Positions 1,972 to 36,953 of a stretch of DNA of 64,000 nucleotides are shown piece by piece (the first letter of the stretch is position 1; every line of letters starts with the position of its first letter). The translations under genes were made by a program, and so were the position numbers. Under the pieces are notes generated by a model that had not been told where the DNA came from, did not search any database, and saw only the letters and a list, made by a program, of their open reading frames with translations. The stretch spans positions 532,753 to 596,752 of the forward strand of contig JACPGJ010000008.1 in assembly GCA_016182555.1 (NCBI GenBank), read 5' to 3'. The DNA comes from Candidatus Kerfeldbacteria bacterium. Lineage in GTDB: Bacteria; Patescibacteriota; Patescibacteriia; UBA9570; XYC2-FULL-38-9.

Positions 1972-2343
1972 TTATCCAATAACTTGTTTTACTTTGTCGA
2001 CCACTTCTTGAGGAGTATGGTTGGCTTTAATAAAGTAATCCGCTGCGCCTAATTCTTTCCCTTTCCGAATATCTTCTTCTTGGCCTAAATTTGTGAGCAA
2101 AATAACCGGAATTTCTTTTGTGGCATCATTTTTCTTCAATTTCTTCAACGCCACAAAACCGTCCATTTTTGGCATAATAATATCAAGCAAAATAATTGCT
2201 GGTTGGTGTTCTTCAGCCATTTGAATACCTTCGGAACCGTTAAACGCCGAAAGAACGGTATATCCTTCTTTCGTAAATTTTTGGGTGTACATGGAATGAA
2301 GCATTTCGTCGTCTTCAACCAAGAGAATGGTGTTTTTGGACAT
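1972..2343 (-). CDS. single-domain response regulator (CheY-like receiver)
   Basis: 123 aa. Receiver-domain residues present: an N-terminal acidic pair (VEDDE), a phospho-acceptor Asp in LLDIIMP, and conserved T/K positions. No output domain. Confidence 0.85.
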   Translation of the reverse strand: MSKNTILLVEDDEMLHSMYTQKFTKEGYTVLSAFNGSEGIQMAEEHQPAIILLDIIMPKMDGFVALKKLKKNDATKEIPVILLTNLGQEEDIRKGKELGAADYFIKANHTPQEVVDKVKQVIG

Positions 2344-4287: not shown

Positions 4288-6612
4288 ATGTACTATATGA
4301 TTCGTTATTTCTTTTTGCTCAACAGTATATTGATATGCACTCTTGTGTTTATGTTGCCCAGTGGAGCAGCGGCAGCAACCTATACCGTCACAAAAATAAC
4401 CGATTCAGCTGATGGTACGTGTAACAGTGATTGTTCATTACGCGAAGCCGTTATTGCAGCCAATAATGCGGCAGGCAGTGATAGTATTACACTTGCCGAA
4501 GGCACCTATACATTATCTATTGCTGGTCAAAATGAAGATGCAGCCGCACAAGGAGATATAGATATCACATCTACCATCACTATTACTGGAATCAGTGCAG
4601 AAGCCACCCTGATCGATGCCGATGAAATTGATGGAGTATTTCATGTCACCGGTGGTGGTGATTTGACTCTGCAAAACCTGACGGTAATGGGAGGAAACAA
4701 TGTCAGTAATGGAGGTGGAATTTATTCGCAAAACATATTGAACATAAGCAACTGTACTATTCGTGACAATGGAGCAACAGATAGTGGTGGAGGCATATAT
4801 GCGGTCGGGACAACTGTAATGATCACCAATGCTATTGTGAGAAATAATACCATTACGGCCAGTAGCGATGGAATAGGGGGAGGGGGTATCTATACCGGAG
4901 CTAGCACCTCTGAAATGGAAAATAGCATTGTCCGCAATAATAGCGTGACCACTACAAATGGGGTTGCTGTTGGAGGAGGAGTTAAAGGCCCTCTTACTAT
5001 TCGTAATAGTCTTATCCAAGAGAATACCGTTACAGCAACTGAGGAAGCCCGAGGTGGAGGTCTGTCTGAACCATGGATTGTGGTGAATACAACAATTATC
5101 GGGAATAGCGCGACGGGTGGAGATGGAACGTATGGTGGGGGCATAGCTTCAGTAGGAGGAGCACTGTATTTTGTCACACTCACACAAAATACGGTTACGG
5201 CAACAACAGGTACAGCAACAGGCGCCAGTCTCGGCATTGCTGGTGGTGCATTATTGATGAAAGGCAGTATTATTGATGATGATGCAAATAGCAACTGTTA
5301 TATAGATTCACCAGGAGGAGTATTAACTTCTCTTGGATACAATATTGAATTAGGGGATACCTGTGAGTTGAGTGAACCCACTGACCTCAATAATACCGAT
5401 CCTCTGTTGGAAAATGCCCTTGCTGATAATGGAGGCTCAACCCAATCGATCGCTATTCAAACAGGTTCACCCGCTGAAGACCTGGTGCCGAGTATTGATT
5501 GTACTGATGATACGACCGACCTCCTGACACAAGACCAACGAGGATTTACCCGACCAGACGATACCAATTGTGATGCAGGAGCCTATGAACGAGATGGCGT
5601 GAATCCAATCATTACCATGACAAACGATACGACAGATGTGAATACTATTGAATGCAGCGTAGATACATTTACTGACCCGGGCGCGACCGTTACCGATAAT
5701 AGTGATGATTTTTATGGCACAACGCTTTCTCTGCAAACGACAGGCAATGTTGATGAACAAACTGCCGGGACATACACCATGACCTATACAGCAACAGATG
5801 CAGCAAATAATACAAATTCAGCAACAAGAACCATCACCGTTGAAGATACCATTGCACCTTCTCTGCAATTGAGTGGAGAAACGCAAGTGAGTATAGAAGA
5901 AGGAACAACGTATACCGATGCTGGTGTTGTGGTGAGTGACCTGTGTGATGCATCAGTCACAGTCATTTCTTCAAATTCAGTAAATACGGCTGTACCCGGT
6001 GTCTATAGTGTTGTCTATACAGCCAACGATGACTCAACAAATTCCACTACAGCAACAAGAACAGTAACTGTCACTGCCGCTCCCGCCACACCAAGTGTGA
6101 CAACCGTCACAGGAGCAAAAAATGGAAAAATAACGGTGATGTATGATGATGATTCTACTACCACTTATACTATTTTTACTACTGATACAGATAAAGAAAC
6201 GTTGGTCACATTCTATACCGATACAGAATATGTTATTGTGCTGCATCCAAAAGGAAAAAAAATGGCGTTGGTTAATCCATCAACCGGTGAAGTGTATTCT
6301 ACCGTGACGCTCTCAGATAAAAAAAAGTATGGGAAAAATGCGATGAAACAATATAACGTACGAGAAGATCAAGATACAAAAACGGAAATGATTGTGACTT
6401 CAAAAAAAGACAACGCCGTAAAACTCAGTATTGTATCGGTGAATATTGCAGAGCTCGCCTTGAAGAAAAAAGATGCGGTGACCTACAACAATAGTCATGT
6501 GAATGTCAGCAAAACGAAAACCAAGAGTAAAACGATTACGTTGCGAAATACAGATAAAGAAACGTTGCAAGCATATCACGTCAGCAAAAAGTACGCGCTA
6601 TCGGAAAAATAA
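4288..6612 (+). CDS. secreted surface protein with a CSLREA-motif N-domain, parallel beta-helix repeats, Ig-like (DUF5011/HYR-like) domains and a Lys-rich C-terminal tail
   Basis: Signal peptide; DGTCNSDCSLREAVIAANN motif; many G/N/T-rich beta-helix repeats; two repeats of the form TYT..YTATD.ANN.NSATRT.TV; last about 120 aa strongly K-rich. Confidence 0.8.
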   Translation: MYYMIRYFFLLNSILICTLVFMLPSGAAAATYTVTKITDSADGTCNSDCSLREAVIAANNAAGSDSITLAEGTYTLSIAGQNEDAAAQGDIDITSTITITGISAEATLIDADEIDGVFHVTGGGDLTLQNLTVMGGNNVSNGGGIYSQNILNISNCTIRDNGATDSGGGIYAVGTTVMITNAIVRNNTITASSDGIGGGGIYTGASTSEMENSIVRNNSVTTTNGVAVGGGVKGPLTIRNSLIQENTVTATEEARGGGLSEPWIVVNTTIIGNSATGGDGTYGGGIASVGGALYFVTLTQNTVTATTGTATGASLGIAGGALLMKGSIIDDDANSNCYIDSPGGVLTSLGYNIELGDTCELSEPTDLNNTDPLLENALADNGGSTQSIAIQTGSPAEDLVPSIDCTDDTTDLLTQDQRGFTRPDDTNCDAGAYERDGVNPIITMTNDTTDVNTIECSVDTFTDPGATVTDNSDDFYGTTLSLQTTGNVDEQTAGTYTMTYTATDAANNTNSATRTITVEDTIAPSLQLSGETQVSIEEGTTYTDAGVVVSDLCDASVTVISSNSVNTAVPGVYSVVYTANDDSTNSTTATRTVTVTAAPATPSVTTVTGAKNGKITVMYDDDSTTTYTIFTTDTDKETLVTFYTDTEYVIVLHPKGKKMALVNPSTGEVYSTVTLSDKKKYGKNAMKQYNVREDQDTKTEMIVTSKKDNAVKLSIVSVNIAELALKKKDAVTYNNSHVNVSKTKTKSKTITLRNTDKETLQAYHVSKKYALSEK

Positions 6613-9520: not shown

Positions 9521-10387
9521 TTATTCCGTTTTATCAATTGGGTCAATCGAAAAAAGAACAAAATCTACTAGATCAAGTGCACTTGGTACCCACTTCATCT
9601 GTGCCGTCATGACTCGTTGTGATGTATTGCTTGTTCCACGCACACCAACCGTAATCACGGATGGAATATCAATCACCTCTCCGCCCCCATCATTATCGCG
9701 ATAGAACTCCACATGCATAGCAGCTAAATCGCAATCCAATGGTTTTACACGAATAACATAATTTTTTGTTTCATCTGGCCAATTGGATACACTACCACAT
9801 TGATATGGATTTCCAACGGCACTATCACAATTCAACATTTGCGTATTGATGACATCGTTAGACGTTCCTAATGTGTACTCATCAAAAGCGTCAAAGGTCA
9901 CCTCTATTCGCGATTGACCCGTATCTGGACACGCGTTTTCATTCCACTGGAATCGCACAGATTGGGCCAATATCGTTTGGAAAGGATCATCCGGGTCATA
10001 CAAATCAATTTCGAGAGAGCGATTCATCTGTACAGGTGAATCAATGCTGCTGACTGTTCGTTGCGTTATTGTTTCATCCATGGCAAAGGTTGCACCGCCC
10101 TGAGATAATGTGCGCTCGGGTGTACTAGACAACATATCCAACACATCGGCGATATCTCTATCTTGCTTACGTTGCGTGCTTACCACATGTAGCTCATATT
10201 CCAAACCGCTTTCTGCCGCATAATAACTCTTTAGTGAATCAGAAAATAACCGAGCGGTGCTGACCTCGCGGTAAATAATAGAAGCCAGTGCAAAACCGAT
10301 GGTCATCATCATAGCCACAATCAATAAAGCAAAAAGCATAACGGCTCCATCTTCTGCGGTGATATGCATAGTTCGTTTATCGGACAT
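9521..10387 (-). CDS. PilX-like type IV pilus assembly protein / minor pilin
   Basis: N-terminal hydrophobic helix followed by an ...AAESGLE segment resembling the PilX N-domain; it is the last gene of the minor-pilin cluster. Confidence 0.55.
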   Translation of the reverse strand: MSDKRTMHITAEDGAVMLFALLIVAMMMTIGFALASIIYREVSTARLFSDSLKSYYAAESGLEYELHVVSTQRKQDRDIADVLDMLSSTPERTLSQGGATFAMDETITQRTVSSIDSPVQMNRSLEIDLYDPDDPFQTILAQSVRFQWNENACPDTGQSRIEVTFDAFDEYTLGTSNDVINTQMLNCDSAVGNPYQCGSVSNWPDETKNYVIRVKPLDCDLAAMHVEFYRDNDGGGEVIDIPSVITVGVRGTSNTSQRVMTAQMKWVPSALDLVDFVLFSIDPIDKTE

Positions 10388-10973
10388 AATAGCGTGGGGT
10401 AAATACCGTTTGTATCAAGGCAGTCTTTGTTGTGGCATAGTCAACGCTCAATTGCATCGTGACGGTAATAGTTGGAACCAGGTCGGGTGTAGAATTACCA
10501 TCTGGATCAGTTTCATACGGTGAACGCGCTGGGTAGATATAAAATTTCCCCACAACAAAATGAATATGATCACCATTCATTTGAGACCATTCATCGGCCG
10601 TATTCGGATCACATGATTCTTCAATGGTTTCTACACGACACAAGAATAAATTCGTGATCCCCTCCTCTGTACGAAACCAAAATACCTGCTGCACGCCTTT
10701 TCGTGTGCGGAGCGCCAGAAACTCTGGTTGTTCAAATGGATCTCCGGTATAAAAATCATAATCCAGCGTACCTTCTTTCACTCGTTCGCTCATCGATGAT
10801 AATACCGATCGACTCTCCGCTTGCATTGTTAACATATTGCGCGATTCTTTTTGACCCCGGAAAAAAATTAACAACAATGTGGTGGCAACAACAATCACAA
10901 TACTGGCAACTGCCGTGGCGACCAAAATTTCCACCAAGGTAAAACCACGGTGTGTGTTAATATTTCCAGTCAT
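10377..10973 (-). CDS. prepilin-type minor pilin
   Basis: Class III signal: MTGNINTHRG|FTLVEILVA with Glu5. Start set at that Met; the ORF extends to 11036. Confidence 0.75.
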   Translation of the reverse strand: MTGNINTHRGFTLVEILVATAVASIVIVVATTLLLIFFRGQKESRNMLTMQAESRSVLSSMSERVKEGTLDYDFYTGDPFEQPEFLALRTRKGVQQVFWFRTEEGITNLFLCRVETIEESCDPNTADEWSQMNGDHIHFVVGKFYIYPARSPYETDPDGNSTPDLVPTITVTMQLSVDYATTKTALIQTVFTPRYYVR

Positions 10974-11700
10974 AGAGATATTCTTCCAAGATATAATTTT
11001 CTGTTTCATCACCCACCGGCCATTGCACCGCCACAATCACATCCAAACCAATTTCTTGCAAACCATACTCTTCACAAGAAAAATCTTCATTGTTGATAAT
11101 TACCTCTCCTGCTGGCATGGTCGTATCGCTACTGACGTTTTCTATTTCACCACAAATAGGATATAACGTGATCAACCGCGAAAACATGGTTGGTTGAAAA
11201 TATTCCGGTTCAAATATCTCATCGCCCGACTGCACATACATCGTGATATTTGGGTCGTACCAAATTTTTGAACAATCATATTCCCCTGCGGATTTTGAGT
11301 AACACTGAGAGCCGAAATCGTCTGGTGCAAAATGTAATTCATACGCGGTTCCTGAATACCCAACAGTCGATGTAGGCACAGCCGTACGGTCACGGTTGTC
11401 TCCCTCTAATCCTGCAGTCCAGCTTATAGCGGATTGCGAATCATACCCCAACCAATTAGCATCACGAATACTACGCACAATTTCTATGCCTTCACGTGCA
11501 AAATTTGCTGCTAAAAACTGATTATTCATTTTTCGTGCCGCTAAAATAGATGTCGTGCTCAACAAAATCAAGCTGAGCACCCCTATGGCAATAATACCAA
11601 CAGCGACTATGGTTTCCAGTAAGGTAAACCCAGCCGCTGCCCGAGGGGTGGACGTGCATTGAGCAGGTGCAGCTGGATGTGAATGAAAAAAAATATACAT
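10957..11700 (-). CDS. prepilin-type minor pilin / pseudopilin
   Basis: AAAG|FTLLETIVAVGIIAIG prepilin cleavage/methylation motif. The 24-aa leader is unusually long, so the true start may be an internal non-ATG codon. Confidence 0.7.
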   Translation of the reverse strand: MYIFFHSHPAAPAQCTSTPRAAAGFTLLETIVAVGIIAIGVLSLILLSTTSILAARKMNNQFLAANFAREGIEIVRSIRDANWLGYDSQSAISWTAGLEGDNRDRTAVPTSTVGYSGTAYELHFAPDDFGSQCYSKSAGEYDCSKIWYDPNITMYVQSGDEIFEPEYFQPTMFSRLITLYPICGEIENVSSDTTMPAGEVIINNEDFSCEEYGLQEIGLDVIVAVQWPVGDETENYILEEYLYDWKY

Positions 11701-11713
11701 AAGGCGTGTACGC

Positions 11714-12283
11714 TTATTCCGTCAATTGCCCGGTCGTGCGATGCAGAGTAATGGTTTCTATATGTTGGCTCTTCAAATGTTTGATCACGATATCCAAGTC
11801 ATTATTTTGAGCAGCATTCACAAAAATAATACCATTGCTTCTGGTGATGAATAGATCACACAAGGGTGGATTTCCTTCTTGGTTGATTTCTGGGGTACAA
11901 CTCTCAATAACCATATTACTCAATAATTCATCTTCTTCAAAACTCACGGTCTTTACTACCGCATCATCTGGTTCTTTTGTATATTGATTATCCGCATTCA
12001 GATCAGCATAAATCGTATACGTATCAGTACCAGGATAGAGAACGAGCCCATAGCCATGTGGCACCGTACCCGTCGTTGATTCTCTTTTTCCACTTTGCGC
12101 CCAACTCATGGTCGTACGAATATCTTCTATCAAAATCGACTGAGCACTCCGTAAAATATTCGGGTTATTTGAGCCGGCAAATTGAAAAATAACCAACGAG
12201 GAAAGCAAACCAATAATCGCGATAACAATCAATAATTCGATAATCGTAAACCCCGCACGAAAGCGAGTGCCGTGTGTGCTCAT
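11714..12283 (-). CDS. prepilin-type minor pilin
   Basis: MSTHGTRFRAG|FTIIELLIVIAIIGLL. Its ATG (12281-12283) overlaps the pilD stop as ATGA; the 100-aa upstream extension of the ORF overlaps pilD and is rejected. Confidence 0.75.
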   Translation of the reverse strand: MSTHGTRFRAGFTIIELLIVIAIIGLLSSLVIFQFAGSNNPNILRSAQSILIEDIRTTMSWAQSGKRESTTGTVPHGYGLVLYPGTDTYTIYADLNADNQYTKEPDDAVVKTVSFEEDELLSNMVIESCTPEINQEGNPPLCDLFITRSNGIIFVNAAQNNDLDIVIKHLKSQHIETITLHRTTGQLTE

Positions 12284-13068
12284 ATCAGAAGATGCATATA
12301 CCAATCGATCAATGCATCTCCCCACCACAAACAGAACAGCGTAGCAACAGCAAGAAATGTGCCAAATGGAATGCGTGTATCTCGGCGTACACGACGAATA
12401 GCAAGGAGAAGAAGAGAAACAACTGCGCCACCGATATACGCAATAAAGAGTGCTGCAATGGTTTTCTGAAAACCAAGCATCGCGCCCATCAATACACCAA
12501 AACGAATATCTCCCGCGCCAATCCACCGCCCACGAGAAATAAGATATTGCAAGAGAAAAAAACCGCCCGCGACTACTGCGCCCCACACCATATTCATCAT
12601 CGTGTAATCCAATACGACACCCGAAGCCAACACCGCCACCACTATACCCGGAATCATCACGCGATCTGGCAATAGCTGATACTTCAAATCATAGATAAAC
12701 AAAAATAATAGAATGGCACCATAGCCAGTAACCACAAAAGCGGCAGGATTCAATGGCCCCATCATCAGAGCCGTAGCGATAAACAGTATTGCACCAATAC
12801 ATTCTACCAATGGATATTGCCAGGAAATCGGTTGAGCACAATACCGACAACGCCCGCGCAACACGATAAAAGAATACACAGGAATCAGATCACGTGCAGC
12901 GAGAGTCGCTTGACACTGTGGGCAACGGCTCCGTGCCGCACCGCCGTGGGTGTTGCGAATATTGGATTCACCTCGGTGCAAACGAAATTCCAGTGCGTTG
13001 ATAAAACTTCCAACACACAACCCAATACAGAAATAGAGAGGGAGAACCAAATAATCATTGAACATCAT
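12280..13068 (-). CDS. pilD: prepilin peptidase (A24 family)
   Basis: 262 aa polytopic protein with an N-terminal Cys-rich box (CPQC...CRYC) and two conserved catalytic-Asp regions (GGAVV..D, GAGDIRFG). Confidence 0.9.
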   Translation of the reverse strand: MMFNDYLVLPLYFCIGLCVGSFINALEFRLHRGESNIRNTHGGAARSRCPQCQATLAARDLIPVYSFIVLRGRCRYCAQPISWQYPLVECIGAILFIATALMMGPLNPAAFVVTGYGAILLFLFIYDLKYQLLPDRVMIPGIVVAVLASGVVLDYTMMNMVWGAVVAGGFFLLQYLISRGRWIGAGDIRFGVLMGAMLGFQKTIAALFIAYIGGAVVSLLLLAIRRVRRDTRIPFGTFLAVATLFCLWWGDALIDWYMHLLI

Positions 13069-13129: not shown

Positions 13130-13639
13130 TTAGCTGCCAGAAGCGTTACCAGAGAGACAATAGACTGCGGCATCACAATTCAATGTGGCGTCAACACCAT
13201 CATAAGTATCGGTTGAGGTCACAGACATCCAGCCTGCACCGCCTTGAGCTGCATCAATATCTTGTTCTAATGCTTTGTGGGCTGTATCTTCTAATGTGGC
13301 TCCAATAACATACTGATCCGTATTATTCGTCAAGTAAACATACGCATCACCATTTGAATCATTCGGATCAAGCGGCAGAATATCGTTCACATAGGTCTTC
13401 ATCTTGGTTTGTAATTCTACCCAAGTATCTGTACCATCGCTGAGTACAGGATAGATTGCTTTATCGTTATAGTACAATTCAAAAGCCGTTTGCAATGAAC
13501 GCATGTCCGATACACGTTTGGTATCTCGAGCGCGTTGCTGAGCAGAAGTGAGGGAAACAATAGCGAGTGTTGCTAATAAACCAATAATCGCGATAACGAT
13601 TAACAGTTCGATCAGCGTAAACCCTTTTTGGTTTTTCAT
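13130..13639 (-). CDS. pilA: major type IV pilin
   Basis: MKNQKG|FTLIELLIVIAIIGLLA prepilin motif; short (about 165 aa mature); C-terminal Cys pair forming a D-region; followed by a strong terminator. Confidence 0.85.
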   Translation of the reverse strand: MKNQKGFTLIELLIVIAIIGLLATLAIVSLTSAQQRARDTKRVSDMRSLQTAFELYYNDKAIYPVLSDGTDTWVELQTKMKTYVNDILPLDPNDSNGDAYVYLTNNTDQYVIGATLEDTAHKALEQDIDAAQGGAGWMSVTSTDTYDGVDATLNCDAAVYCLSGNASGS

Positions 13640-13736: not shown

Positions 13737-14969
13737 CTAAAATTGAGCAGTAATCGCGTAAATAGGCATCAAAATACCTAATACCAACACCAAAATACCC
13801 GCTCCTAAGAGAATAATAATCACTGGTTCAATTAAACTCACCAATGCACCGGTTAAACTATTCACCTCTCCCGTATAAAAATCAGCGACTTTAGTAAGAA
13901 TTTGATCCAATCTTCCCGTTTCCTCGCCCACATTCATCATTTGCGTCATCATCGGTGGGATATATTTGCTTTTTCCTAAAGCGGACGAGAGCGAGTGACC
14001 GGCTTCCACATCTTTTCGGACTTGAAGCAAAATCTGTTTATAGGTAGCATTACCCACAATATCACTAATAATTTCAATAGAACGATTCACGGGCACACCG
14101 GCAGCAAGGAGATTGGCCATACTTCTGCTCATACGCGCCAAATAAATTTTGCGGAAAATATTTCCAATAACGGGAATATGCAACAACCCTCGATCTAAAA
14201 AATATTGCCCCTGTGGACGAGAGCGCAGCACGGTATACACGACGATCAAAATGACAACGAAAGATAACAGCACCCACCAATACTGCTGAAAGGCTGTACT
14301 GACGGTAATCAATGCACGCGTAGCCCAAGGTAATTGCGCACCGGAGGAAGCCACCACATCCAATAATTTCGGTAGCACATAAATCATCATAAAAATAAAA
14401 ATTCCTACCAACACAACAACAATAAACGCTGGATAGATCAACGCACTAATCATACGAGATACCAATGCGTAATCTTTTTCTTTTTGATCAGCCAAATACG
14501 TCAGTACATCATCTAATTGCCCAGTGGTTTCTCCGGCGCGAATCATATACACAAAAAAATCATCGAAAATATGGCTATGCCGATGCAACGATGAAGATAG
14601 GCGCGCCCCTCCGTCTACTTCATTGGCAACATCGGTGATTACTCGGCGCAGTACCGGCGACTCTGTTTGCTTAGCAAGAATTCGCAACGCACGAACAATC
14701 GGCACCGTGGCGGAAATAAGCACCGCCAGCTGCCGAGAAAAAACCACCACATCTTTTGTTTTTACACGTTCGGTCAACCGTTTCCAATTAAATCCAATAC
14801 GCCGCGTCCCTTGTTCTTGTAAAAAAATAACGATCAAATTTTTTTCACGCAGCATTTCTTGGGCCACGGTGAGCGATGGAGCATCAAGCTCCCCTTCTAT
14901 CGAACGTCCAGCCTGGTCTTTTGCTTGATAGGTAAATTGTGGCATAGAAGAACAGTGACGAATAATCAA
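13737..14969 (-). CDS. pilC: type IV pilus platform protein (GspF family)
   Basis: Two GspF-type repeats with three TM segments; alternative start at 14945 (MPQFTYQ...). Confidence 0.9.
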   Translation of the reverse strand: MIIRHCSSMPQFTYQAKDQAGRSIEGELDAPSLTVAQEMLREKNLIVIFLQEQGTRRIGFNWKRLTERVKTKDVVVFSRQLAVLISATVPIVRALRILAKQTESPVLRRVITDVANEVDGGARLSSSLHRHSHIFDDFFVYMIRAGETTGQLDDVLTYLADQKEKDYALVSRMISALIYPAFIVVVLVGIFIFMMIYVLPKLLDVVASSGAQLPWATRALITVSTAFQQYWWVLLSFVVILIVVYTVLRSRPQGQYFLDRGLLHIPVIGNIFRKIYLARMSRSMANLLAAGVPVNRSIEIISDIVGNATYKQILLQVRKDVEAGHSLSSALGKSKYIPPMMTQMMNVGEETGRLDQILTKVADFYTGEVNSLTGALVSLIEPVIIILLGAGILVLVLGILMPIYAITAQF

Positions 14970-16073
14970 TTAGCGAAAAAGCGCCGGGTTTTGTGCAAAA
15001 TGCATAGCCACATCACGACTCACAATTCCCCGAGAAACGGCCTCTGCGAGGGCAATATCCAAACTACGTATTCCTGGCTCACGAGAAGTATAGAGAATAT
15101 TGTTCAATTGCAACAGGTCACCTTTTTGAATAATAGTGCGAATCGATTCGTTTGGTATCATCACCTCGGCAATCATGGCTCGATCTCCACTGACGGTATT
15201 CACGCGACGCTGATTAATAACCCCAACGAGTGTATGGGCAAGCATCATGCGTATTTGCTGTTGTTCGATATCTGTAAACCGATAAATAATATCACTCAAT
15301 ACGCCCACAATAGCACTGGCAATGGCGGGAACAAATACGGTCTTCCCTGCAGCTGCCAAAGAGAGAGCAGCGGTATACGCTTGCGGTGAATCTAAGGCCG
15401 AGAGCATAACCACATCGACATCTTCTTGCGCAACAAATTGTAATGCAGATTCCACACTTGCCACATCTTTGCCCACTTCACGTTGTTCAATGACGCAGCG
15501 CTGATCGTTAAAGAGAAATTCTACGGGCTGTTCAATAGTGACGATATGCTTGGCCGCGGTTTGATTCAAATAATCCACAAAACTGGCTAGGGTTGTTGAT
15601 TGTTCAGCATTCGCTGTGCCAATAACCAATACCAACCCGGCAGAGACGGTCGCTAACTGTTGTGCAGCAGCCGGCAATCCCAAAGCATTCAATGGTGGTG
15701 GGGCTAGTGGAATAAGCGTGAGCGCAGCGGAGAGATGCCCTTGCTGGTAAAACACCGCAATTTTAAATCGTTTTTTATTTTCTAATGATTTAGCTACAGT
15801 GATTTGTTTCTCGCGCTGCAAACGTTCTTGCTCTGCTGGGTCTAACCAAGAGATCACGACTTCCTGTACAAAACTGGGCGTTAACACATTTTGCTCTGGC
15901 AATGCGACCAACTGTTCGTTCACCCGAATCATCGGTGGGTTGCCCACAGACAAATGCAATACCGTAGCATGATAGGTTTCAGCCAGAGACAATATTTTCT
16001 GTATCGTAAATTGGTCAGCAGTATTCATATCTGTTGCATCATTATTCTGCGCCCACGGTCCAAACTTCTTCAA
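14970..16073 (-). CDS. PilT-like hexameric ATPase paralogue with degenerate catalytic motifs (predicted pseudo-ATPase)
   Basis: Overall PilT-like fold (HLSVGNPPMIRV; ...STTL...IVTIEQPVEF...). Four motifs substituted relative to canonical PilT-family ATPases: Walker A GPTGSGKST becomes GTANAEQST, Asp-box D becomes Q, Walker B GE becomes SA, His-box H becomes K. The neighbouring PilB retains all of them. Confidence 0.8.
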   Translation of the reverse strand: MKKFGPWAQNNDATDMNTADQFTIQKILSLAETYHATVLHLSVGNPPMIRVNEQLVALPEQNVLTPSFVQEVVISWLDPAEQERLQREKQITVAKSLENKKRFKIAVFYQQGHLSAALTLIPLAPPPLNALGLPAAAQQLATVSAGLVLVIGTANAEQSTTLASFVDYLNQTAAKHIVTIEQPVEFLFNDQRCVIEQREVGKDVASVESALQFVAQEDVDVVMLSALDSPQAYTAALSLAAAGKTVFVPAIASAIVGVLSDIIYRFTDIEQQQIRMMLAHTLVGVINQRRVNTVSGDRAMIAEVMIPNESIRTIIQKGDLLQLNNILYTSREPGIRSLDIALAEAVSRGIVSRDVAMHFAQNPALFR

Positions 16074-17790
16074 TAGATGTTAAGCCCCGCAATGCGGCCA
16101 ATAATCCATTTTGTTTAATCGTCACCATGCCTTGATGACGCAATTCTTCTTCCACCACTGCTGGCGTGTGAATATCACCGGCAGCAATAATAGCCCGTAA
16201 CCGATCAGTCACTTCTACCGTCTCCGCCACGGCTAAACGGCCTTTGTACCCTGTATCTTCGCAGTGCTGACACCCTTTTCCTTTAAATACCTTCAACGGC
16301 GGTTGTAAGACGATGCCTTTTGGAAGTGAAGATTTCGGTATACGTTCCAACTCAGCCAAAATTTGCGATTCTAATAATGGCGGAACAATTTCTGGTACCA
16401 AACACTCCATGCAATTGCGCCGAACCAGGCGTTGAGCGATCACCAGGTTCAATGCGGAAGAGATTAAAAATGGTTCAATACCCATATCAATTAAACGCGG
16501 GATTGCACCAATCGCATCATTGGTATGTAATGTGCTCAACAACATATGTCCAGTGAGCGCTGCATGAATCGCCAATTCAGCCGTTTCATTATCGCGAATT
16601 TCTCCTACCATAATAATATCTGGATCTTGGCGCAAAATAGAGCGTAATCCACGTACAAAGGTCAACCCAATTTCTGGCCGTACTTGTGACTGTGCAATCC
16701 CGGTCATGTGGTATTCGACCGGATCTTCTAGCGTAATAATATTGCGTTCTTCGTTATTGAGAATTTGCAACATCGAATAGAGTGTGGTGGATTTACCAGA
16801 ACCCGTGGGACCAGTCATGAGAATCATGCCATGCGGACGTTGGAGGTGTTCATGAATGACACTCAAGTTGCGGTCAGCGAACCCGAGGTCTTCTAAGGTC
16901 TGCAATCCAGATTCTTGATCTAAAATACGCAACACCACTTTTTCATGGTCAATCAACGGCATGGTAGACACACGAAAATCGATCTGCCGCCCATCAATTT
17001 TCATACGAAAACGGCCATCTTGTGGCAGGCGTGTTTCATCTAATTTTAAATTGGCTAACACTTTAATACGTGCCACTAAGGAATTGTGCACATTTTTTGG
17101 TAACTGCAATGACGTGTGCAAAATACCATCCACACGATATCGCACACGCGTGCCATCATCGTGGGGTTCAATATGCACGTCTGATGCGCTGCCTTCCACG
17201 GCGTAACGTAAAATAACCGCCACCATTTTTGAAACCGGTGCATTTTTTACCGATGGATCGGCGTCTGCTAATTCTTCTGCTTCATCTTGCAATACATCAA
17301 CAAGATCTGTGTTTTGTTCCTTTAACGCTTGCGCCACCTCTTTGGTTAAATTTGCATACTGATGCAGCACCGCACGGAAACTTGATTCAGAAGTCAAAAA
17401 ATATTTAATTTGAAGATGATCTTTGCGTGCAATAAAATCAAGCGCTTCAATCGCTTTATAATCTTGCGGGTCCACCATGGCCACAGATAACTCACTTCCG
17501 TTTCTGGCCCACGGCACGACACGATAATTCTCCGCAATATCTGGCGTGAACGCATTCAATATTTCGCTGGGAATATCTTGGTCCAGTAATGAAATATAGG
17601 GTACACGCAACACCATCGCTTTCACTTGCGTAAGCTCCTCTTCATTCACGATATGTTCTTGCACCAATACCGTTAACAAATCAACGCCAGTACGTTGAGA
17701 TTCTATTTGCGCTTGTGTAAGCTGTGCAGGAGTAATGAGTTGGCGCGCCTGCAATTGCTGAACAATGGTCATGATATCTGCAAGTTTCAT
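16042..17790 (-). CDS. pilB: type IV pilus assembly ATPase (GspE family)
   Basis: 582 aa with an N-terminal GspII/MshEN-like domain, intact Walker A GPTGSGKST, Asp box, Walker B DIIMVGEIRD, His box and a tetracysteine CxxC...CxxC motif. Confidence 0.92.
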   Translation of the reverse strand: MKLADIMTIVQQLQARQLITPAQLTQAQIESQRTGVDLLTVLVQEHIVNEEELTQVKAMVLRVPYISLLDQDIPSEILNAFTPDIAENYRVVPWARNGSELSVAMVDPQDYKAIEALDFIARKDHLQIKYFLTSESSFRAVLHQYANLTKEVAQALKEQNTDLVDVLQDEAEELADADPSVKNAPVSKMVAVILRYAVEGSASDVHIEPHDDGTRVRYRVDGILHTSLQLPKNVHNSLVARIKVLANLKLDETRLPQDGRFRMKIDGRQIDFRVSTMPLIDHEKVVLRILDQESGLQTLEDLGFADRNLSVIHEHLQRPHGMILMTGPTGSGKSTTLYSMLQILNNEERNIITLEDPVEYHMTGIAQSQVRPEIGLTFVRGLRSILRQDPDIIMVGEIRDNETAELAIHAALTGHMLLSTLHTNDAIGAIPRLIDMGIEPFLISSALNLVIAQRLVRRNCMECLVPEIVPPLLESQILAELERIPKSSLPKGIVLQPPLKVFKGKGCQHCEDTGYKGRLAVAETVEVTDRLRAIIAAGDIHTPAVVEEELRHQGMVTIKQNGLLAALRGLTSIEEVWTVGAE

Positions 17791-18710
17791 GGTGTCGTGT
17801 TCGTTACCGGTAACAATACAGGGATTGGCGTAAATGGTTCTGTATTGCCAGGAATAGGCATAGAAAACGCATCACTCGATGGATTACCAGAAGCATCCAC
17901 TGCAACCAACGTATAATAATAATGCGCATTTGGTACAGCAGAGGTGTCTGTGAATGCTGGTATCTCACTCTGTTTGACCGTAGCAATTTGTTCACCACGA
18001 ATACCATACGTAGTTGAACGGAAAATATTCAGATGATCAAAATCAACAACCGTCGGATTCACCCATTGTATATGAACACCATATTGATTATCGCTCTGTG
18101 TCGATGTAATGATAATGTCCGTGGGAGCCAATGGTGGAATGGTATCCGCCGGTATAACACTAACGGTTGGCGCTGTATCACTGGTGTACTCTATTTCGTT
18201 AAACGTATTCACTGAAACAACACGATACGTGTAGGTCTGAGCGTTATCCAGCCCGGTATCCAGAAATGATTCTTCGATAATATGTGTCGCAACTAACTCA
18301 TCGGCGGTCGGTATATTTGCATGAGTTGTACTGCGGTAAATGTTGACGGACTCAACACCATCTGGGCGGGTCCAAAACAACACGGCTTCTCCTCCAATGC
18401 GGGTATTGAACGCCGTGAGGTGTGTAACCGGCGCAGGATGCTGTGAGTGTAAAAATGTTGCTTCTACTTGAGGCTGGGTCTGTGGCACAGCATGCACATC
18501 TAATGCCAACACTTGTTCATGTAACAATGTGTCTGTTGGAAAATCACTCACCACTCGACCAGTTGTTGTATCTTCACTGGTGATTAACCCAAATGCTGAT
18601 TGATTATATCGAGTGGTATAGATCGCCAGACCAGCTAATACCAAAATGAGAGAGATCAATGTCCATTCTTTTGCGGTGAACGATGGTAGCCAATGACGTT
18701 TGTGGTTCAT
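17787..18710 (-). CDS. membrane-anchored protein with two fibronectin type III-like domains (pilus-locus component)
   Basis: N-terminal TM helix; two FN3-like signatures (YTYRVVSVN, YYYTLVAVDASGNPS); stop overlaps the pilB start. Confidence 0.6.
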   Translation of the reverse strand: MNHKRHWLPSFTAKEWTLISLILVLAGLAIYTTRYNQSAFGLITSEDTTTGRVVSDFPTDTLLHEQVLALDVHAVPQTQPQVEATFLHSQHPAPVTHLTAFNTRIGGEAVLFWTRPDGVESVNIYRSTTHANIPTADELVATHIIEESFLDTGLDNAQTYTYRVVSVNTFNEIEYTSDTAPTVSVIPADTIPPLAPTDIIITSTQSDNQYGVHIQWVNPTVVDFDHLNIFRSTTYGIRGEQIATVKQSEIPAFTDTSAVPNAHYYYTLVAVDASGNPSSDAFSMPIPGNTEPFTPIPVLLPVTNTTP

Positions 18711-19396
18711 AAAGATGAAGGCGTGGAAGGTGATTTTCGATAATACGTTTCTAACTGTACAGCAAAACTACTGGAGGACGGTGAATAACTCAGGTTGCGT
18801 AGATCAAGCAAGGGAGTAGATGATTGTAACAGATTCAAAAAATCTTTTAGTGCATCGTATGAACCAGTCGCGCTCTCAATATTCAAGGTAATTACCGCTC
18901 GACCAATGCTTGTTGGAAGAGTGGTAATCGCTGCGGCATCGGTATTCCCAGATGTATTTGCGTTTGCATTCGTTGCGCTACTAGCCGACTCCACCACATC
19001 AACGCTCAGCACGTGCATAGAAGCCGCGTCTGCTAACCGTTGCAAATGAGCCATTGTTGCGGTTGCATCTATCCCTTCTGGTAACACCACATTCATTTGT
19101 TGTAGGCGCTCCGTATCTACCGCTGCATACGCATCATTCATCTGTTTCAATTGATCCAAATATTGTTGGCGTTGATTCCGTTCTTCCATTGCTGCTTGTT
19201 GCCCAATGAAACCACGTTCTTGCAAATGTTCATACTGTTGCCGCAAAAATGTGAACCAACCAATGGCACACAACAGGAGTATTTCCATGCATACTAACAA
19301 GCGATAGTGACGATGAATAAATGGATAGCGCACAACAATTTTTGAATTATTCTCCGGCATAGGCAGTTGGGGTTGATTGAAATAATGATGGCGCAA
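18707..19396 (-). CDS. pilO: PilO-like inner-membrane pilus alignment protein
   Basis: Single TM, then a coiled-coil segment and a C-terminal globular region; located between pilN and pilB. Confidence 0.55.
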   Translation of the reverse strand: MRHHYFNQPQLPMPENNSKIVVRYPFIHRHYRLLVCMEILLLCAIGWFTFLRQQYEHLQERGFIGQQAAMEERNQRQQYLDQLKQMNDAYAAVDTERLQQMNVVLPEGIDATATMAHLQRLADAASMHVLSVDVVESASSATNANANTSGNTDAAAITTLPTSIGRAVITLNIESATGSYDALKDFLNLLQSSTPLLDLRNLSYSPSSSSFAVQLETYYRKSPSTPSSL

Positions 19397-20501
19397 ACTG
19401 AACAGTCATGCTAGAACGCACATTCTGCTGCTTGTGCTGCGTGTCATCGGATGTTGTATCTGCTTTTGTGGCTGTTGTGCCTTCGCCGGCGTCTGTTGCT
19501 GAAGTGACTTCTACTTCTTCGACCATAGGAGAATGACGAAATACATTGACTTGCGCTTCTAACTGTTCATAATCTGGAGCGATGACATCAAAAACAAAAC
19601 GACCAGACGTCGCAGAACCGGAGAGCGATTCATAATAAATGGTAGGAAAAGTCAGCTCTTCTACAGTTGAAAAAAATGGCGTCCAATACACATGCGCATC
19701 GAGCACCGTTGCTAAATCTTCTAGCTGTGAATGCAGTGTTCGTGCACTATTAGCTACTGGAATGAACCCCGCAATTTGATTGTTTATATGATCAATATCT
19801 TGATGAATTTGCAGCGTATTTGTAAGTACACGATGTTCGTAAATGTTTAACCCAGCAACAGTAGAAAGCATCAGGCCAATAACCACAATCGCTATATAAA
19901 GAAAATCGTGCATACTATGCGCGCCGTTGCCGTTAGATGAACCGTGTGTGTCATGTGGGATAAGATTAACTCCAAAATTGATAATACGGTCAACTGGAAA
20001 TTGCTGTTTTGCGTGACGATTTTTTCTTTGCCGTTTCGCATGAGGGCCCTGCTGCGCTGGCATTTCCTGCGGTAAAGGATGTGGCGCCGCCTTCGGTATC
20101 TCGGGCAATGGCGGCAAGGATGATGGAGTAGCCAGTGCCGCATGGAGTAAATCTGTTTCTGCTTCTTCTTTCCTGTGCTTTGGCGCAAGGTGAACCATAG
20201 CTGGTACGGGCGAAGACACAGCTGGGGTGGGTTTAATTGCAGCGGATAACGACGGAAGAGCGACAGGTCGTTGTTGGGGTTGAAGTTGGGGTTGTGCTGG
20301 TGTGTTGGGGTGTTTCTTCCTTCTCCACAACAAAAATGACCGTTTTTCGCTTGGTGCGTTCAACGGATGAACAGGAGAAGATATTGGCGCATTCATTTTC
20401 TCGCCGCTGGTATACTCAATAGCACCTCGATCACCACTGGTTGAATGAGGATGTGTTTTTCCCTTTCTGGAACCAGAAGAAAGAAAATCGATATCTCCCA
20501 T
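19347..20501 (-). CDS. pilN: PilN-like protein with a long Pro/Gln-rich N-terminal extension
   Basis: Conserved PilM-binding-like INLIP motif immediately before the single TM (FLYIAIVVIGLMLSTVAGL), preceded by about 190 aa of low-complexity P/Q-rich sequence. Confidence 0.6.
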   Translation of the reverse strand: MGDIDFLSSGSRKGKTHPHSTSGDRGAIEYTSGEKMNAPISSPVHPLNAPSEKRSFLLWRRKKHPNTPAQPQLQPQQRPVALPSLSAAIKPTPAVSSPVPAMVHLAPKHRKEEAETDLLHAALATPSSLPPLPEIPKAAPHPLPQEMPAQQGPHAKRQRKNRHAKQQFPVDRIINFGVNLIPHDTHGSSNGNGAHSMHDFLYIAIVVIGLMLSTVAGLNIYEHRVLTNTLQIHQDIDHINNQIAGFIPVANSARTLHSQLEDLATVLDAHVYWTPFFSTVEELTFPTIYYESLSGSATSGRFVFDVIAPDYEQLEAQVNVFRHSPMVEEVEVTSATDAGEGTTATKADTTSDDTQHKQQNVRSSMTVQFAPSLFQSTPTAYAGE

Positions 20502-20503
20502 AG

Positions 20504-21745
20504 TTAACTAATTTCTCGCATTGCAAGACCAGTGGCAACCGCGAGTCGAGGTCCAATTGTTTGTAAAATCGGTTTCAAATCGACAGGGTACATTACACGC
20601 GCCCAAGGATCACCAATATATACTTTCATATTCAATACTTGGTGGAGATATTGGGTAATATTCGGCAACCACGCAGACCCACCAGCGAGAATAATCTTTT
20701 CAATTCCCAAGTTGCCTTGGTTTTGATACAGATTCAAGACATATTTAATCTCATTGATGATGGACGCGACCATAAATTCAATCCGTTTCGGTATTTGACC
20801 ACCACTACCAGAGTCTGCCGCTTGCTGTGCAAGGCCAAAATCGCGTTTGAATTGTTCAGCGCGCTCCATATCAATGTTTAAACTATTCGCAATTGCTTTG
20901 GTAATGGTACGACCACCAATATCAATGCTGCGGTTAATTAACGGAACAGAATCAACAACAACGCTAATCGTTGTCGCAACGGCACCGATATCAATAATCA
21001 TAATTGGCGACTTATCGTTGCCAATAAGCGAACGTTCCAACGCAAAACTTTCTGTTTCCAAGCTTACTAAATTCAGTTTCGCTTCTTTAAAAATTTCGAC
21101 ATAGCGCGTAACCAAATTTTTGGGTGCAGCCGTGAGTAAAATCTTCAAAAATTTCTTTTTCTCTTTAGACGTAATAGTGGCGGGTTGTTGTGCTCCAGCG
21201 CCGCCAGACAGAGTATTCGGGTAAGCTTGCGGCATTCCTGGTTGTTGCACTGGCATACCAGGCATTTGGTTCATGCCGGCCATCGGTTGGCCTGGCGTCA
21301 TGTTGGTTGCTGGGCTTATTCCAACGCTCGGATTTGCAGAAAACTGAGTAGAAATATCGCTATCAGCAAGAATTTTCCAATCCAGAATCATTTCTTCTAA
21401 TGGCATCGGTACAAACTTTTTGGCTTCCCATTGCACCGCTGCAGTAAGCTCTTTTTTGGACATCTCCGGCAGGTGAATGATGGAGGTAAATACCGTATAA
21501 CTCGGAAGCGCAGCAATCGCATTTGTGGATGTCGTTCGTGCAGCTTCTCGTACACGCTGCAAAGCGGAGATAATTGCTTCACGCGTTTCTTTACTATCGG
21601 ATGTGAGAATTTTATTTTCTTGCTCTAGGTAACCGTACGTTAATAACTTTGGGCGACCTTTATCATTTTGTAATTCCACCACTTTCAGGGCTGAATTAGC
21701 AATATCAACACCTAAGTAACTTTCATTTGATCCAAACAATGACAT
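20504..21745 (-). CDS. pilM: actin-like ATPase-fold pilus protein
   Basis: PilM/FtsA-like N-terminus (LGVDIANSALKVVEL) with an inserted Met/Pro/Gln/Gly-rich linker. Confidence 0.85.
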   Translation of the reverse strand: MSLFGSNESYLGVDIANSALKVVELQNDKGRPKLLTYGYLEQENKILTSDSKETREAIISALQRVREAARTTSTNAIAALPSYTVFTSIIHLPEMSKKELTAAVQWEAKKFVPMPLEEMILDWKILADSDISTQFSANPSVGISPATNMTPGQPMAGMNQMPGMPVQQPGMPQAYPNTLSGGAGAQQPATITSKEKKKFLKILLTAAPKNLVTRYVEIFKEAKLNLVSLETESFALERSLIGNDKSPIMIIDIGAVATTISVVVDSVPLINRSIDIGGRTITKAIANSLNIDMERAEQFKRDFGLAQQAADSGSGGQIPKRIEFMVASIINEIKYVLNLYQNQGNLGIEKIILAGGSAWLPNITQYLHQVLNMKVYIGDPWARVMYPVDLKPILQTIGPRLAVATGLAMREIS

Positions 21746-21825: not shown

Positions 21826-23514
21826 TTATTGCCCGTTTTCAAAAATCGGCAGCGTCGAAGCGAAATCGCGAAGGCCCGGTGGGGTGTTCACCAATACACG
21901 ACCGTCGTAATATATGAACTCAGCTGGTTGGTCATCCCCGATTACTCCTTTATATGTACGCTGAAAATGAAATCCTTGTCCCATCATCAACCCATAAACA
22001 ACGAGCTGTGATGCGGAAGCGGGTTCTGTAGTGACCATGCCATTATTCACCACCCCATCACTTTGATCGGCATCACCAATAACGAAAAAAGAACCCACCA
22101 ACTGCGACACATTGGGCCCGATCGTCAGATTACCGCGAACAATCCAAGCAACAGAAGCCAAATTACTCACATCAACCAATGACGATTGTTCGTAAAAAAG
22201 ATTCGCATCAATTTCCAAGTTACCGTTAATCACAAACACGCCGGAACCGTCATAGTCTTTTCCGGTAGAGGAAAGCGCCGTGCCATTCAAAAACGTCATG
22301 GCATGATCAATAATCACGGTCGTATCTGTGGGTTCGTTCGCGTCGCCCAAAACATACACCTGTCCATCTAAAAATAAATTGCTCTCCAAATCATCAATAG
22401 TATCTAGGGTGGATACCTGGTCGTTGTACGCATTTTTATCGCGCTCATCCGTGGTGAGCAGTTTATCAAAATCTAACCGACCCAATTCACTACGATATTC
22501 ATTTTCACTGTTCGGCAAATTCAACGCACCATAGGTTCCAAGAGTACCATCCTCACCGACAGCGGTCGTAAAATTCACAAATTCACTTTCACCCGTGTCC
22601 GCATTGCCGACAATGAGAAACGTAGCGTTGTATTGCGTTGGAGATAAATCTCCATTCGGGTTGATAATACCACCAGCGGCATAAACGTCACCATTGATTG
22701 TCGACAGATAAGGATCATTCGGGTTTGATTCACTCGTACTCGGGAAAAAATTCATCCAACCCAACCCAACCGTTGGGTCATAACTTCCGCTGGGCACGGT
22801 TCCTCCACCCGAAAATACCCACCCGGAAAAGGAATTATTTGTATACAACAAACCAAATTCTTGATTATCTGCAGCATTTGTTCCTCGTAATAATACCCAG
22901 CCCCAATCATTATTCTTGTTGCTCGTGCCGAGAATCGTATCACCATAGGCAGCCAATGTTTCTAAACGTGCCCAACCCGAAATTTCTTTTTTATTGACGG
23001 TATCTACTTCAGCAGCGTGGCACGGTGGTGCCGGATATATGGAACCTGCTGGGCAATTTACCGTATCACCATAAGTGCTGCTATCTGGTAATGGATTTGG
23101 GTGAAAATTCAGCCAACCGGTGGATGCTGGCGGTGCTGAAGCACAAATTCCTTGACACGCAACGGCATCTGCGGCTCCTAACCACGCCCAGCCAGAAATA
23201 TACCCTGTATCGGTATCCACGTTCACTTTTGGGTAATTGCCTAAGCTACTATCACATGAATTATCGCTCGCACAATCGAGATGAATAAATCCAATAGCGG
23301 AATAATCAGAAGTACCGGTCGTCGTGTTCTGGTCAGCTGGTAGGCCAATCCATGCCCACGCACTAAATTCATCATACACTTGTTGGGCAGAAGCGCTGTC
23401 ATACGGAACGACAGTGACAACAAAAAATAACAATACAGCGAGTAAAAAATATTGTATGCGTATACGCGATATCAGCATATGCGTCATCATACGAAAAAAG
23501 GGAGGCCGTGGCAA
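21826..23514 (-). CDS. secreted protein with about seven spaced (S)GW(A/V)(W/F) repeats, directly upstream of pilM
   Basis: Signal peptide (several candidate Met starts). Repeats: FSAWAWIG, ISGWAWLG, STGWLNF, ISGWARL, DWGWVLL, FSGWVFSG, GLGWMNF. No recognisable enzyme motif. Confidence 0.6.
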   Translation of the reverse strand: MPRPPFFRMMTHMLISRIRIQYFLLAVLLFFVVTVVPYDSASAQQVYDEFSAWAWIGLPADQNTTTGTSDYSAIGFIHLDCASDNSCDSSLGNYPKVNVDTDTGYISGWAWLGAADAVACQGICASAPPASTGWLNFHPNPLPDSSTYGDTVNCPAGSIYPAPPCHAAEVDTVNKKEISGWARLETLAAYGDTILGTSNKNNDWGWVLLRGTNAADNQEFGLLYTNNSFSGWVFSGGGTVPSGSYDPTVGLGWMNFFPSTSESNPNDPYLSTINGDVYAAGGIINPNGDLSPTQYNATFLIVGNADTGESEFVNFTTAVGEDGTLGTYGALNLPNSENEYRSELGRLDFDKLLTTDERDKNAYNDQVSTLDTIDDLESNLFLDGQVYVLGDANEPTDTTVIIDHAMTFLNGTALSSTGKDYDGSGVFVINGNLEIDANLFYEQSSLVDVSNLASVAWIVRGNLTIGPNVSQLVGSFFVIGDADQSDGVVNNGMVTTEPASASQLVVYGLMMGQGFHFQRTYKGVIGDDQPAEFIYYDGRVLVNTPPGLRDFASTLPIFENGQ

Positions 23515-36885: not shown

Positions 36886-36953
36886 AAATAAAGTGTAGTT
36901 TATATTTGTATATTTGTCAAGATTTATTACGCGACCACAATCACTGACGCAGA

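Follow-up and report, generated by a model that had tools for sequence, protein, structure and literature searches.

The retraction ATPase PilT is usually the most conserved protein of type IV pilus systems, and it serves as a marker for retractile pili and twitching. Four sequence motifs of PilT have been described as essential for its function (PMC5065972, PMC6762196). In Vibrio cholerae, PilT carrying Walker A or Walker B mutations nevertheless supports near-normal function of two pilus systems if PilU is active (PMC6762196; reviewed in PMC11656802), and an engineered Walker-A-dead PilT forms stable, PilC-dependent foci at the pilus machines, to which it bridges PilU. The AIRNLIRE motif of PilT has been placed in the PilT-PilC interface by an AlphaFold 3 (AF3) model, and motor-free retraction has been documented for other type IV pili. 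Among bacteria of the candidate phyla radiation, a survey of protein families lumped PilB and PilT into one family, and in Saccharibacteria the PilT of pilus locus one, where pilB1 and pilC1 also lie, reportedly has well conserved Walker boxes (PMC11623550). Here we analyzed a stretch of 64,000 nucleotides from a Candidatus Kerfeldbacteria genome (64 kb; hereafter the window), in which a type IV pilus operon carries a degenerate PilT gene that we named pilT' (protein PilT'; X in gene orders such as pilB-X-pilC). PilT' is a PilT by fold, ancestry and operon position, and it fails as a retraction ATPase by the defining catalytic features.

Fold, catalytic motifs and operon slot of PilT'

We asked to which family PilT' belongs. 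The NCBIfam model TIGR01420 (PilT/PilU) matched PilT' over model positions 2-341 of 343 with an E value of 6.7e-76, and the score of 255.7 bits fell below the curated cutoff of 319.1 bits. Among PDB entries, Aquifex PilT (2ewv) aligned with an E value of 1.7e-56. The Pfam T2SSE match was weak (31.6 bits, residues 138-293), and the GspE, TfpB and ComGA models covered only about residues 137-295 of PilT' (E values of 1e-7 to 1e-9). An AlphaFold 2 (AF2) model built with 44 homologues was confident throughout, with a predicted local distance difference test score (pLDDT) of 93.3 and a predicted template-modeling score (pTM) of 0.89. Its best structural match in Foldseek was Geobacter metallireducens PilT4 (6ojy_B; template-modeling score 0.94, root-mean-square deviation 1.8 A), followed by PilU (9n32) and other PilTs, with DotB, PilF and GspE clearly lower. 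By AF2 and Foldseek, PilT' has the two-domain PilT fold, that is, an N-terminal PAS-like domain and a RecA-like ATPase domain, and has neither an N1/MshEN domain nor a zinc finger. A Pfam scan also found no MshEN domain in PilT', so the protein does not qualify as an extension ATPase of the PilB/GspE type. The initial annotation of this DNA, which was made from the letters alone, had described a full-length alignment with PilT-type ATPases and proposed a profile and structure comparison; TIGR01420, 2ewv and the AF2 model all agree with that description.

The open reading frame (ORF) reported there, 14970..16073 on the minus strand, is present in the sequence, but the product is probably shorter than the 367 aa proposed. 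An ATG at 16028 is the likely start, giving 352 aa plus a stop codon, in agreement with the public gene call and with the first residue in 91% of the homologues in the clade described below. The length of 367 aa and a 32-nt overlap with pilB had been obtained because the longest ORF, starting at TTG 16073, was taken. The stop codon of pilB (TAA) lies at 16044..16042 on the minus strand and the ATG of pilT' 13 nt beyond it, so the overlap, and with it the proposed translational coupling, had to be given up. On the other side, 24 nt separate pilT' from the ATG of pilC (14945), showing tight packing.

14970..16028, minus strand: pilT' coding sequence; in the public record the hypothetical protein HYV32_06630 of a Candidatus Kerfeldbacteria metagenome-assembled genome (MAG), on a contig of 598,550 bp
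16029..16073, minus strand: in-frame upstream extension to TTG 16073; probably untranslated, and the source of the apparent 32-nt pilB overlap

We then compared the motifs of PilT' with those of canonical PilTs, using a residue-by-residue alignment with PDB entries and an alignment of 120 sequences. The following segments were located.

15594..15620, minus strand: Walker A (P-loop) remnant GTANAEQST, residues 137-145; canonical GPTG(S/H)GKST, Lys and second Gly lost
15516..15539, minus strand: Asp-box remnant TIEQPVEF, residues 164-171; Asp replaced by Gln, both Glu kept
15387..15422, minus strand: Walker B remnant DVDVVMLSALDS, residues 203-214; canonical D-h4-GE-MRD, Gly-Glu replaced by Ser-Ala, Arg of MRD lost
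15315..15356, minus strand: His-box remnant AAAGKTVFVPAIAS, residues 225-238; first His replaced by Lys, second His by Ile
15123..15149, minus strand: AIRNLIRE equivalent ESIRTIIQK, residues 294-302; I-R-x-x-I core kept, terminal R-E replaced by Q-K
15921..15956, minus strand: motif HLSVGNPPMIRV of the N-terminal domain, residues 25-36; few stretches of the clade are better conserved
15744..15770, minus strand: RFKIAVFYQ, residues 87-95; canonical RFRxN, with Lys here in place of the second Arg, a residue that is 100% conserved in canonical PilT

All four nucleotide-handling motifs are substituted, as the initial annotation had claimed. A retraction ATPase has a Walker A of the form GxxGxGK(S/T) with its Lys, and in PilT' GPTGSGKST has become GTANAEQST; the Asp box, with its Asp and Glu, has changed from IEDPIE to IEQPVE. 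The canonical Walker B DPDVIFVGEMRD has become DVDVVMLSALDS, in which D-h4-G-E reads DVDVVMLSA, with the Asp kept and Gly-Glu changed to Ser-Ala. The His box AETGHLVFGTLHT (AETGHLVFxTLHT) has become AAAGKTVFVPAIAS, so that the segment that should hold two His reads AGKTVFVPAIAS. The catalytic substitutions are thus K143Q, D167Q, G210S, E211A, H229K and H236I. Conservation across 204 canonical PilTs is 100% for the Lys and the Asp, for both His and for the Gly of GE, and equally for the arginines at positions R89, R104, R201, R213 and R246 (PilT' numbering); PilT' has a substitution at every one of them. Because these positions are invariant in the 204 canonical proteins, chance is no explanation for their loss. 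A shift of register was rejected as well: pairwise alignments of hidden Markov models and two multiple alignments put the remnants at the canonical motif positions. What PilT' keeps is E166 and E170 of the Asp box, D203 of Walker B and the QRE triad at 182-184. At the AIRNLIRE motif, which separates PilT from PilU, PilT' has ESIRTIIQK, and the outer-clade versions PAVRSIIKE and PPVRAVIRE are closer to the canonical form.

The neighboring PilB is intact, keeping GPTGSGKST, LEDPVE, MVGEIRD and TGHMLLSTLHT. An independent Logan assembly has the same PilT' sequence as the NCBI MAG, which together with the intact PilB bears out the earlier statement that the substitutions are not sequencing noise. 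The degeneracy is conserved in orthologues, and pilT' is not a recent pseudogene either. Judged from its sequence, PilT' is predicted to have lost the ability to bind or hydrolyze ATP.

The gene is encoded among pilus machinery genes, as expected of a PilT. The window holds a complete type IV pilus operon on the minus strand, from pilM and the pilN-like and pilO-like genes to pilB-pilT'-pilC-pilin-pilD, and the genes around pilT' are, in the direction of transcription:

21826..23514, minus strand: conserved 562-aa gene upstream of pilM
20504..21745, minus strand: pilM
19347..20501, minus strand: pilN-like gene
18707..19360, minus strand: pilO-like gene
17787..18710, minus strand: conserved 307-aa gene between the pilO-like gene and pilB
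16042..17790, minus strand: pilB, extension ATPase of 582 aa with an MshEN domain and all four motifs intact (T2SSE, 2.2e-128)
13737..14945, minus strand: pilC platform protein (T2SSF), 402 aa from ATG 14945
13130..13639, minus strand: candidate major pilin (N_methyl, T2SSG-like)
12280..13068, minus strand: prepilin peptidase PilD (A24)
9521..12283, minus strand: four downstream genes closing the operon, two of them minor-pilin-like with weak N_methyl matches and two without a Pfam match

The initial annotation regarded the gene as a paralogue wedged between pilB and pilC. In the other Patescibacteria that we inspected (L006, L008 and L152), however, a canonical PilT occupies the same pilB-pilT-pilC slot. 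The Paceibacteria locus L150, which is without pilB, reads pilT-pilC-pilin-pilD-minor pilins-DNA ligase-gatC-gatA with a fully canonical PilT, and its downstream neighborhood is that of the window and its relatives. Because a canonical PilT fills this slot, pilT' is the positional orthologue of PilT, and the idea of an extra paralogue was rejected. A tblastn search of the window for PilT/PilB-type genes found only pilB and pilT', and there was no second PilT/PilU gene in the flanks (within 10 kb of pilT') of nine related loci. Taken together, pilT' is the operon's own PilT and not an extra subunit. Of the earlier proposal of a dedicated pseudo-ATPase subunit, what stands is that the protein is of the PilT type and cannot work as a normal ATPase; what falls is its being an addition to the machine. 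The roles suggested there, as a cap or poison of a motor hexamer or as a retraction brake, are plausible conjectures.

Several features of the operon were noted besides. The set of four downstream genes is also present in two related loci (L002 and L003). The 550-562-aa gene and the 307-aa gene have no Pfam match in the window copies and are both present in L001-L003; relatives of the 307-aa gene show a weak Fn3 match. A promoter and terminator scan of the operon gave counts at or below shuffle expectation.

The degenerate clade and its conservation profile

How widespread is the degenerate state? It was found in at least 115 clusters at 90% identity, corresponding to 55 representatives at 50% identity. 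The degenerate sequences formed one clade without any canonical sequence in two neighbor-joining trees, both of which are distance trees without bootstrap support. All clade members with a taxon name are Candidatus Kerfeldbacteria, and one genome-collection locus is from Buchananbacteria. The position of the Walker A Lys is occupied in the 115 clusters by Lys (30), Arg (72) or Gln (10). The Asp-box Asp is kept in 6 of the 115 and the second Asp-box Glu in 114; the Walker B Glu is kept in 80, the first His of the His box in 3 and the second in 4. Not one of the 115 has a fully intact motif set. Orthologues with intact Walker A and B motifs, which the initial annotation had named as an observation that would speak for an assembly error or recent decay, were therefore not encountered among the clade members.

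The degeneration is graded. Basal members keep single canonical residues, such as the first His in P0456, P0438 and P0440, and most outer members show GPFGSG(K/R)TT, IE(K/Q/R)PIE, DVDVVxVSE and GRLV..MNTD. In the inner Kerfeldbacteria clade the P-loop Lys is lost, and PilT' of the window and its two nearest relatives have P-loops that are mutually unrelated (GTANAEQST, GPFGSHMQL and GPLDTQNVL). The ORFs of the clade are all intact, with lengths of 342-382 aa save for two clusters at 339 and 309 aa (one on a contig of 1.7 kb).

Related genomes also showed that the synteny pilM-N-O-x-pilB-(receiver)-pilT'-pilC-pilin-pilD is kept in nine loci (L001-L005, L011, L093, L111 and L127). Thus the survey that had been proposed of the degenerate motifs and of the pilB-X-pilC order found both conserved, the latter inside a pilM...pilB-X-pilC-pilin-pilD unit. 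A nested sub-clade (P0414; L010 10001..12139; L154 10001..12118) has the order der-pth-pilT'-pilM-mfd-dprA, away from pilB and pilC, and L154 lies in a complete Kerfeldbacteria genome of 1.31 Mb (CP181398.1). The state of this sub-clade is K-x-E-E-R-E, in which Walker A retains its Lys and Walker B its Glu, and neither His remains. With this sub-clade, the number of genomic settings of the family rises to at least two, and pilus-machine genes adjoin pilT' in each. The pattern search of genome contigs, made from the clade alignment, used generic PilT motifs, and L010 and L011 were clade members among the matches listed. The metagenome contig search used back-translated HLSVGNPPM, a motif that is not clade-specific, and it returned mostly ordinary pilT-pilU tandems, with only L093, L111 and L127 from the inner clade.

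We next asked where selection acts on the gene. Synonymous sites were saturated, protein identity being 57% in the closest distinct pair for which DNA was available (L003 and L093 are identical to each other); the ratio of non-synonymous to synonymous substitution rates (dN/dS) was therefore replaced by identity relative to PilB and PilC and by region-wise identity. In the degenerate loci, the identity of pilT' was on average 10.4 points below that of PilB and 6.3 points below that of PilC (36 pairs). In Patescibacteria loci with a canonical PilT, this protein was instead 7.4 points above PilB (in 96% of 120 pairs) and 15 points above PilC. Between genomes with degenerate loci, pilT' identity was 33-57% where that of PilC was 40-65%, suggesting that the constraint is relaxed and has not vanished. 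Canonical PilTs of Paceibacteria (P0270-P0388) are 81-97% identical over at least 120 clusters, as compared with the 33-57% between genomes of the degenerate clade.

The distribution of identity along the protein was also different. In the inner clade, conservation of the P-loop (53%), Walker B (54%) and the His box (50%) does not exceed that of the whole protein (56%), whereas in canonical Patescibacteria PilT the same three regions reach 86%, 83% and 93%, with an overall value of 54%. Among the three closest relatives, P-loop identity is 19% and overall identity 59%. The N-terminal domain shows the reverse, 62% in the inner clade versus 42% in canonical PilT. The conservation profile is thus inverted, a pattern typical of a pseudoenzyme that is maintained for the sake of a non-catalytic surface. 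A pseudo-ATPase is a protein whose catalytic residues are gone and whose fold and gene are retained by selection across a lineage, and this is what was found, with 115 clusters that are degenerate and intact, monophyletic and inverted in profile, and with an identity between genomes near that of PilC.

A possible partner is encoded elsewhere in the window:

1972..2343, minus strand: stand-alone CheY-like receiver of 123 aa, just downstream of gatC-gatA

This receiver is 50% identical to the one encoded between pilB and pilT' in outer-clade operons (L004, L005, L011 and L103), and inner-clade operons have no receiver in the pilB-pilT' slot. Direct binding of receiver proteins to PilB and PilT has precedents (PMC13507683).

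Degenerate PilT modules were also seen in fusions. P0260, P0129, P0146 and P0169 are single proteins of about 680-720 aa with two tandem PilT modules. The first module is degenerate in P0260 (RTEEKN), P0129 and P0169, and both modules are degenerate in P0146. The second module is fully canonical in P0129 and P0169, and in P0260 it keeps the P-loop Lys and not the His box. P0260 (L148 987..3017) is from a non-Patescibacteria genome, beside sigma-54, fliW and csrA.

Other genes of the window lie further from the subject. A predicted surface protein of 774 aa (4288..6612, plus strand), with Ig-like domains and a repeat-rich N-terminal half, is encoded between DNA ligase and gatC, near the pilus operon and on the opposite strand. 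A sigma-70-family protein of 511 aa (28197..29732, plus strand) has three region 4 (Sigma70_r4_2) matches; for a sigma factor, such length and repetition are unusual. What looks like a small toxin-antitoxin or defence-like island, at 35656..38000 and 41023..42381 (both minus strand), holds two AAA_14/DUF4143 ATPase genes and a gene for an AbiEii-type nucleotidyltransferase toxin.

Possible roles of PilT'

With a confidence of about one half, we favor the explanation that PilT' is the lineage's own PilT turned pseudo-ATPase, and that it acts as a non-catalytic switch or gate at the PilC platform and not as a motor. According to this model, PilT' would still form a hexameric ring and dock under the PilC platform. 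Docking is plausible by analogy with PilT, on the basis that PilT' keeps the I-R-x-x-I core of AIRNLIRE. PilT' would then compete with PilB for the platform, and the replacement of PilB would end extension; the filament would afterwards be held, or would disassemble without motor power. Where earlier-branching members have retained both the Walker B Glu and a P-loop with Lys or Arg, the switch may be set by a nucleotide that is bound and not turned over, and the CheY-like receiver encoded beside pilT' may feed into it. Because the same loss in PilT was inherited across the whole lineage, these pili probably run without a conventional retraction motor. We propose only tentatively a stronger version, in which a large lineage, Kerfeldbacteria and relatives, has no dedicated retraction ATPase at all, a dead PilT ring is an obligatory structural switch on PilC, and retraction is either unpowered, as a property of the filament itself, or driven by a bidirectional PilB.

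Several observations weigh against the switch. Partial loss of function would likewise make the gene evolve faster than pilB and pilC. E166, P168, E170, Q182-R183-E184 and D203 are invariant across the clade, and this invariant part of the active site could point to residual ligand binding instead of a purely structural role. The sub-clade P0414/L010 stands beside pth and pilM, so the role of the family may not be tied to PilB and PilC alone. Finally, if an active PilT or PilU were encoded outside the window, an adaptor model would be the better one.

In such an adaptor model, PilT' is a non-catalytic bridge on PilC that recruits an active ATPase, either a PilU-like protein encoded elsewhere or PilB, for retraction. 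We consider this unlikely, although it survives best among the alternatives. It has a working precedent in V. cholerae, where Walker-dead PilT functions if PilU is active, PilU fails without PilT (PMC6762196), and PilT bridges PilU to the machine. The PilT-type AIRNLIRE core kept in PilT' would suit such a bridge, as would the natural fusions P0260, P0129 and P0169, in which a dead first module is followed by another PilT module, fully intact in the case of P0129 and P0169. However, a second gene of the PilT/PilU type was found neither in the window nor within 10 kb of pilT' in the nine loci, and the canonical Patescibacteria PilTs that we inspected all lie in their own pilB-pilT-pilC operon (pilT-pilC in L150), none of them as an orphan. 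In addition, no canonical PilT was co-located with a contig of the degenerate clade among the matches listed in three homologue lists, which is a weak argument.

A second alternative, which we regard as rather improbable, is that the PilT scaffold was re-purposed for a role apart from exchange with PilB at PilC, for example as a PilM-associated regulator or a ligand sensor. The nested sub-clade in pth-pilT'-pilM-mfd-dprA, which includes the complete 1.31-Mb genome, the partly invariant nucleotide pocket (E166, E170, QRE and D203) and the receiver gene that adjoins pilT' in outer-clade operons would all fit such a role. But pilB and pilC flank the gene in the window, at distances of 13 and 24 nt, as they do in all inner-clade members, the spacing in the relatives being comparably short, and even the displaced sub-clade still adjoins pilM, a pilus-machine gene.

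We asked also whether pilT' could be a functionless relic on its way to being lost, in a lineage whose pili do not retract. The gene does evolve faster than pilB and pilC, its catalytic loops drift freely, and NCBI annotates it only as a hypothetical protein. The 115 distinct clusters with intact ORFs, the between-genome identity (33-57%) near that of PilC (40-65%), an N-terminal domain more conserved than in active PilT, and the AF2 model that is confident throughout all argue against decay. Patescibacteria genomes are small, and a 1-kb gene of no use would be less likely to persist in them for long. We therefore give this explanation little credence.

Least credible of all is that PilT' is still an ATPase through unconventional residues or that the motif loss is an artefact of assembly or annotation: weak activity is possible in the many outer-clade members that keep a P-loop Lys/Arg and the Walker B Glu, but PilT' itself is without the P-loop Lys, the second Gly, the Walker B Gly-Glu, both His and the arginine network, its sequence is identical in two assemblies, and the same state is inherited across the clade.

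PilT' among known motor and assembly proteins

The loss has several consequences. The use of PilT as a marker for retractile pili and twitching would mislead in the Kerfeldbacteria lineage, where many clade members are annotated as 'twitching motility protein PilT' or 'PilT/PilU family ATPase'. A natural and ancient ATP-blind PilT would separate platform binding from the motor role, which hitherto only laboratory point mutants did. Type IV pili are regarded as central to host attachment and DNA uptake in the candidate phyla radiation (PMC11623550), so a different motor logic in a major lineage bears on the biology of these organisms, and a design without a retraction ATPase, if true, would be an energy-saving motor in ultra-small symbionts. 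The graded series, which begins with members that still have the Walker B Glu and a Lys or Arg in the P-loop and ends with P-loops that are fully scrambled, is a ready set for structure-function work. It makes a non-catalytic role of PilT testable, although the organisms are uncultivated. A degenerate PilT as such will surprise pilus specialists. In the literature that we searched, including that on Patescibacteria pili, we found no description of a naturally degenerate PilT, which is not proof of absence.

PilT' shares the fold and length of the PilTs of type IVa pili (Aquifex 2ewv, Pseudomonas aeruginosa 3jvv and G. metallireducens PilT4 6ojy) and their operon slot in Patescibacteria. Sequence identity is 28-37%, and the AIRNLIRE core is recognizable. 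Unlike these proteins, PilT' has all four motifs and the arginine network replaced and scores below the TIGR01420 cutoff, and it evolves faster than PilB, whereas canonical PilT evolves more slowly.

PilU has the same PilT-like fold, and 9n32 was among the top structural matches. However, PilU has intact Walker motifs that it needs, lacks AIRNLIRE and carries a specific C-terminal segment that contacts PilT. PilT' is the opposite on all three counts, with degenerate motifs, the AIRNLIRE core present and no C-terminal extension (352 aa, ending with PilT), and we conclude for these reasons that it is not a PilU.

The concept of a P-loop-type protein kept for assembly or regulation and not for power is shared with FlaH of the archaellum and TadZ of the Tad system. 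Those proteins belong to other folds and families (RecA/KaiC-like and MinD/ParA-like, respectively) and are not derived from the motor ATPase itself.

The closest functional analogue is the engineered PilT of V. cholerae (K136A and E204A), which like PilT' is a PilT that cannot use ATP. The engineered proteins are laboratory point mutants in a cell with PilU; PilT' is natural, altered at multiple sites, ancient and lineage-wide, and so far no PilU has been found alongside it in the window or in the flanks of the nine related loci. The nearest natural precedent that we found is PilT R206S of V. cholerae MO10 (PMC6762196), in which the Arg next to Walker B is impaired; the equivalent residue, R213, is lost in PilT'. 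R206S is a single recent substitution in one strain, whereas PilT' is a conserved redesign.

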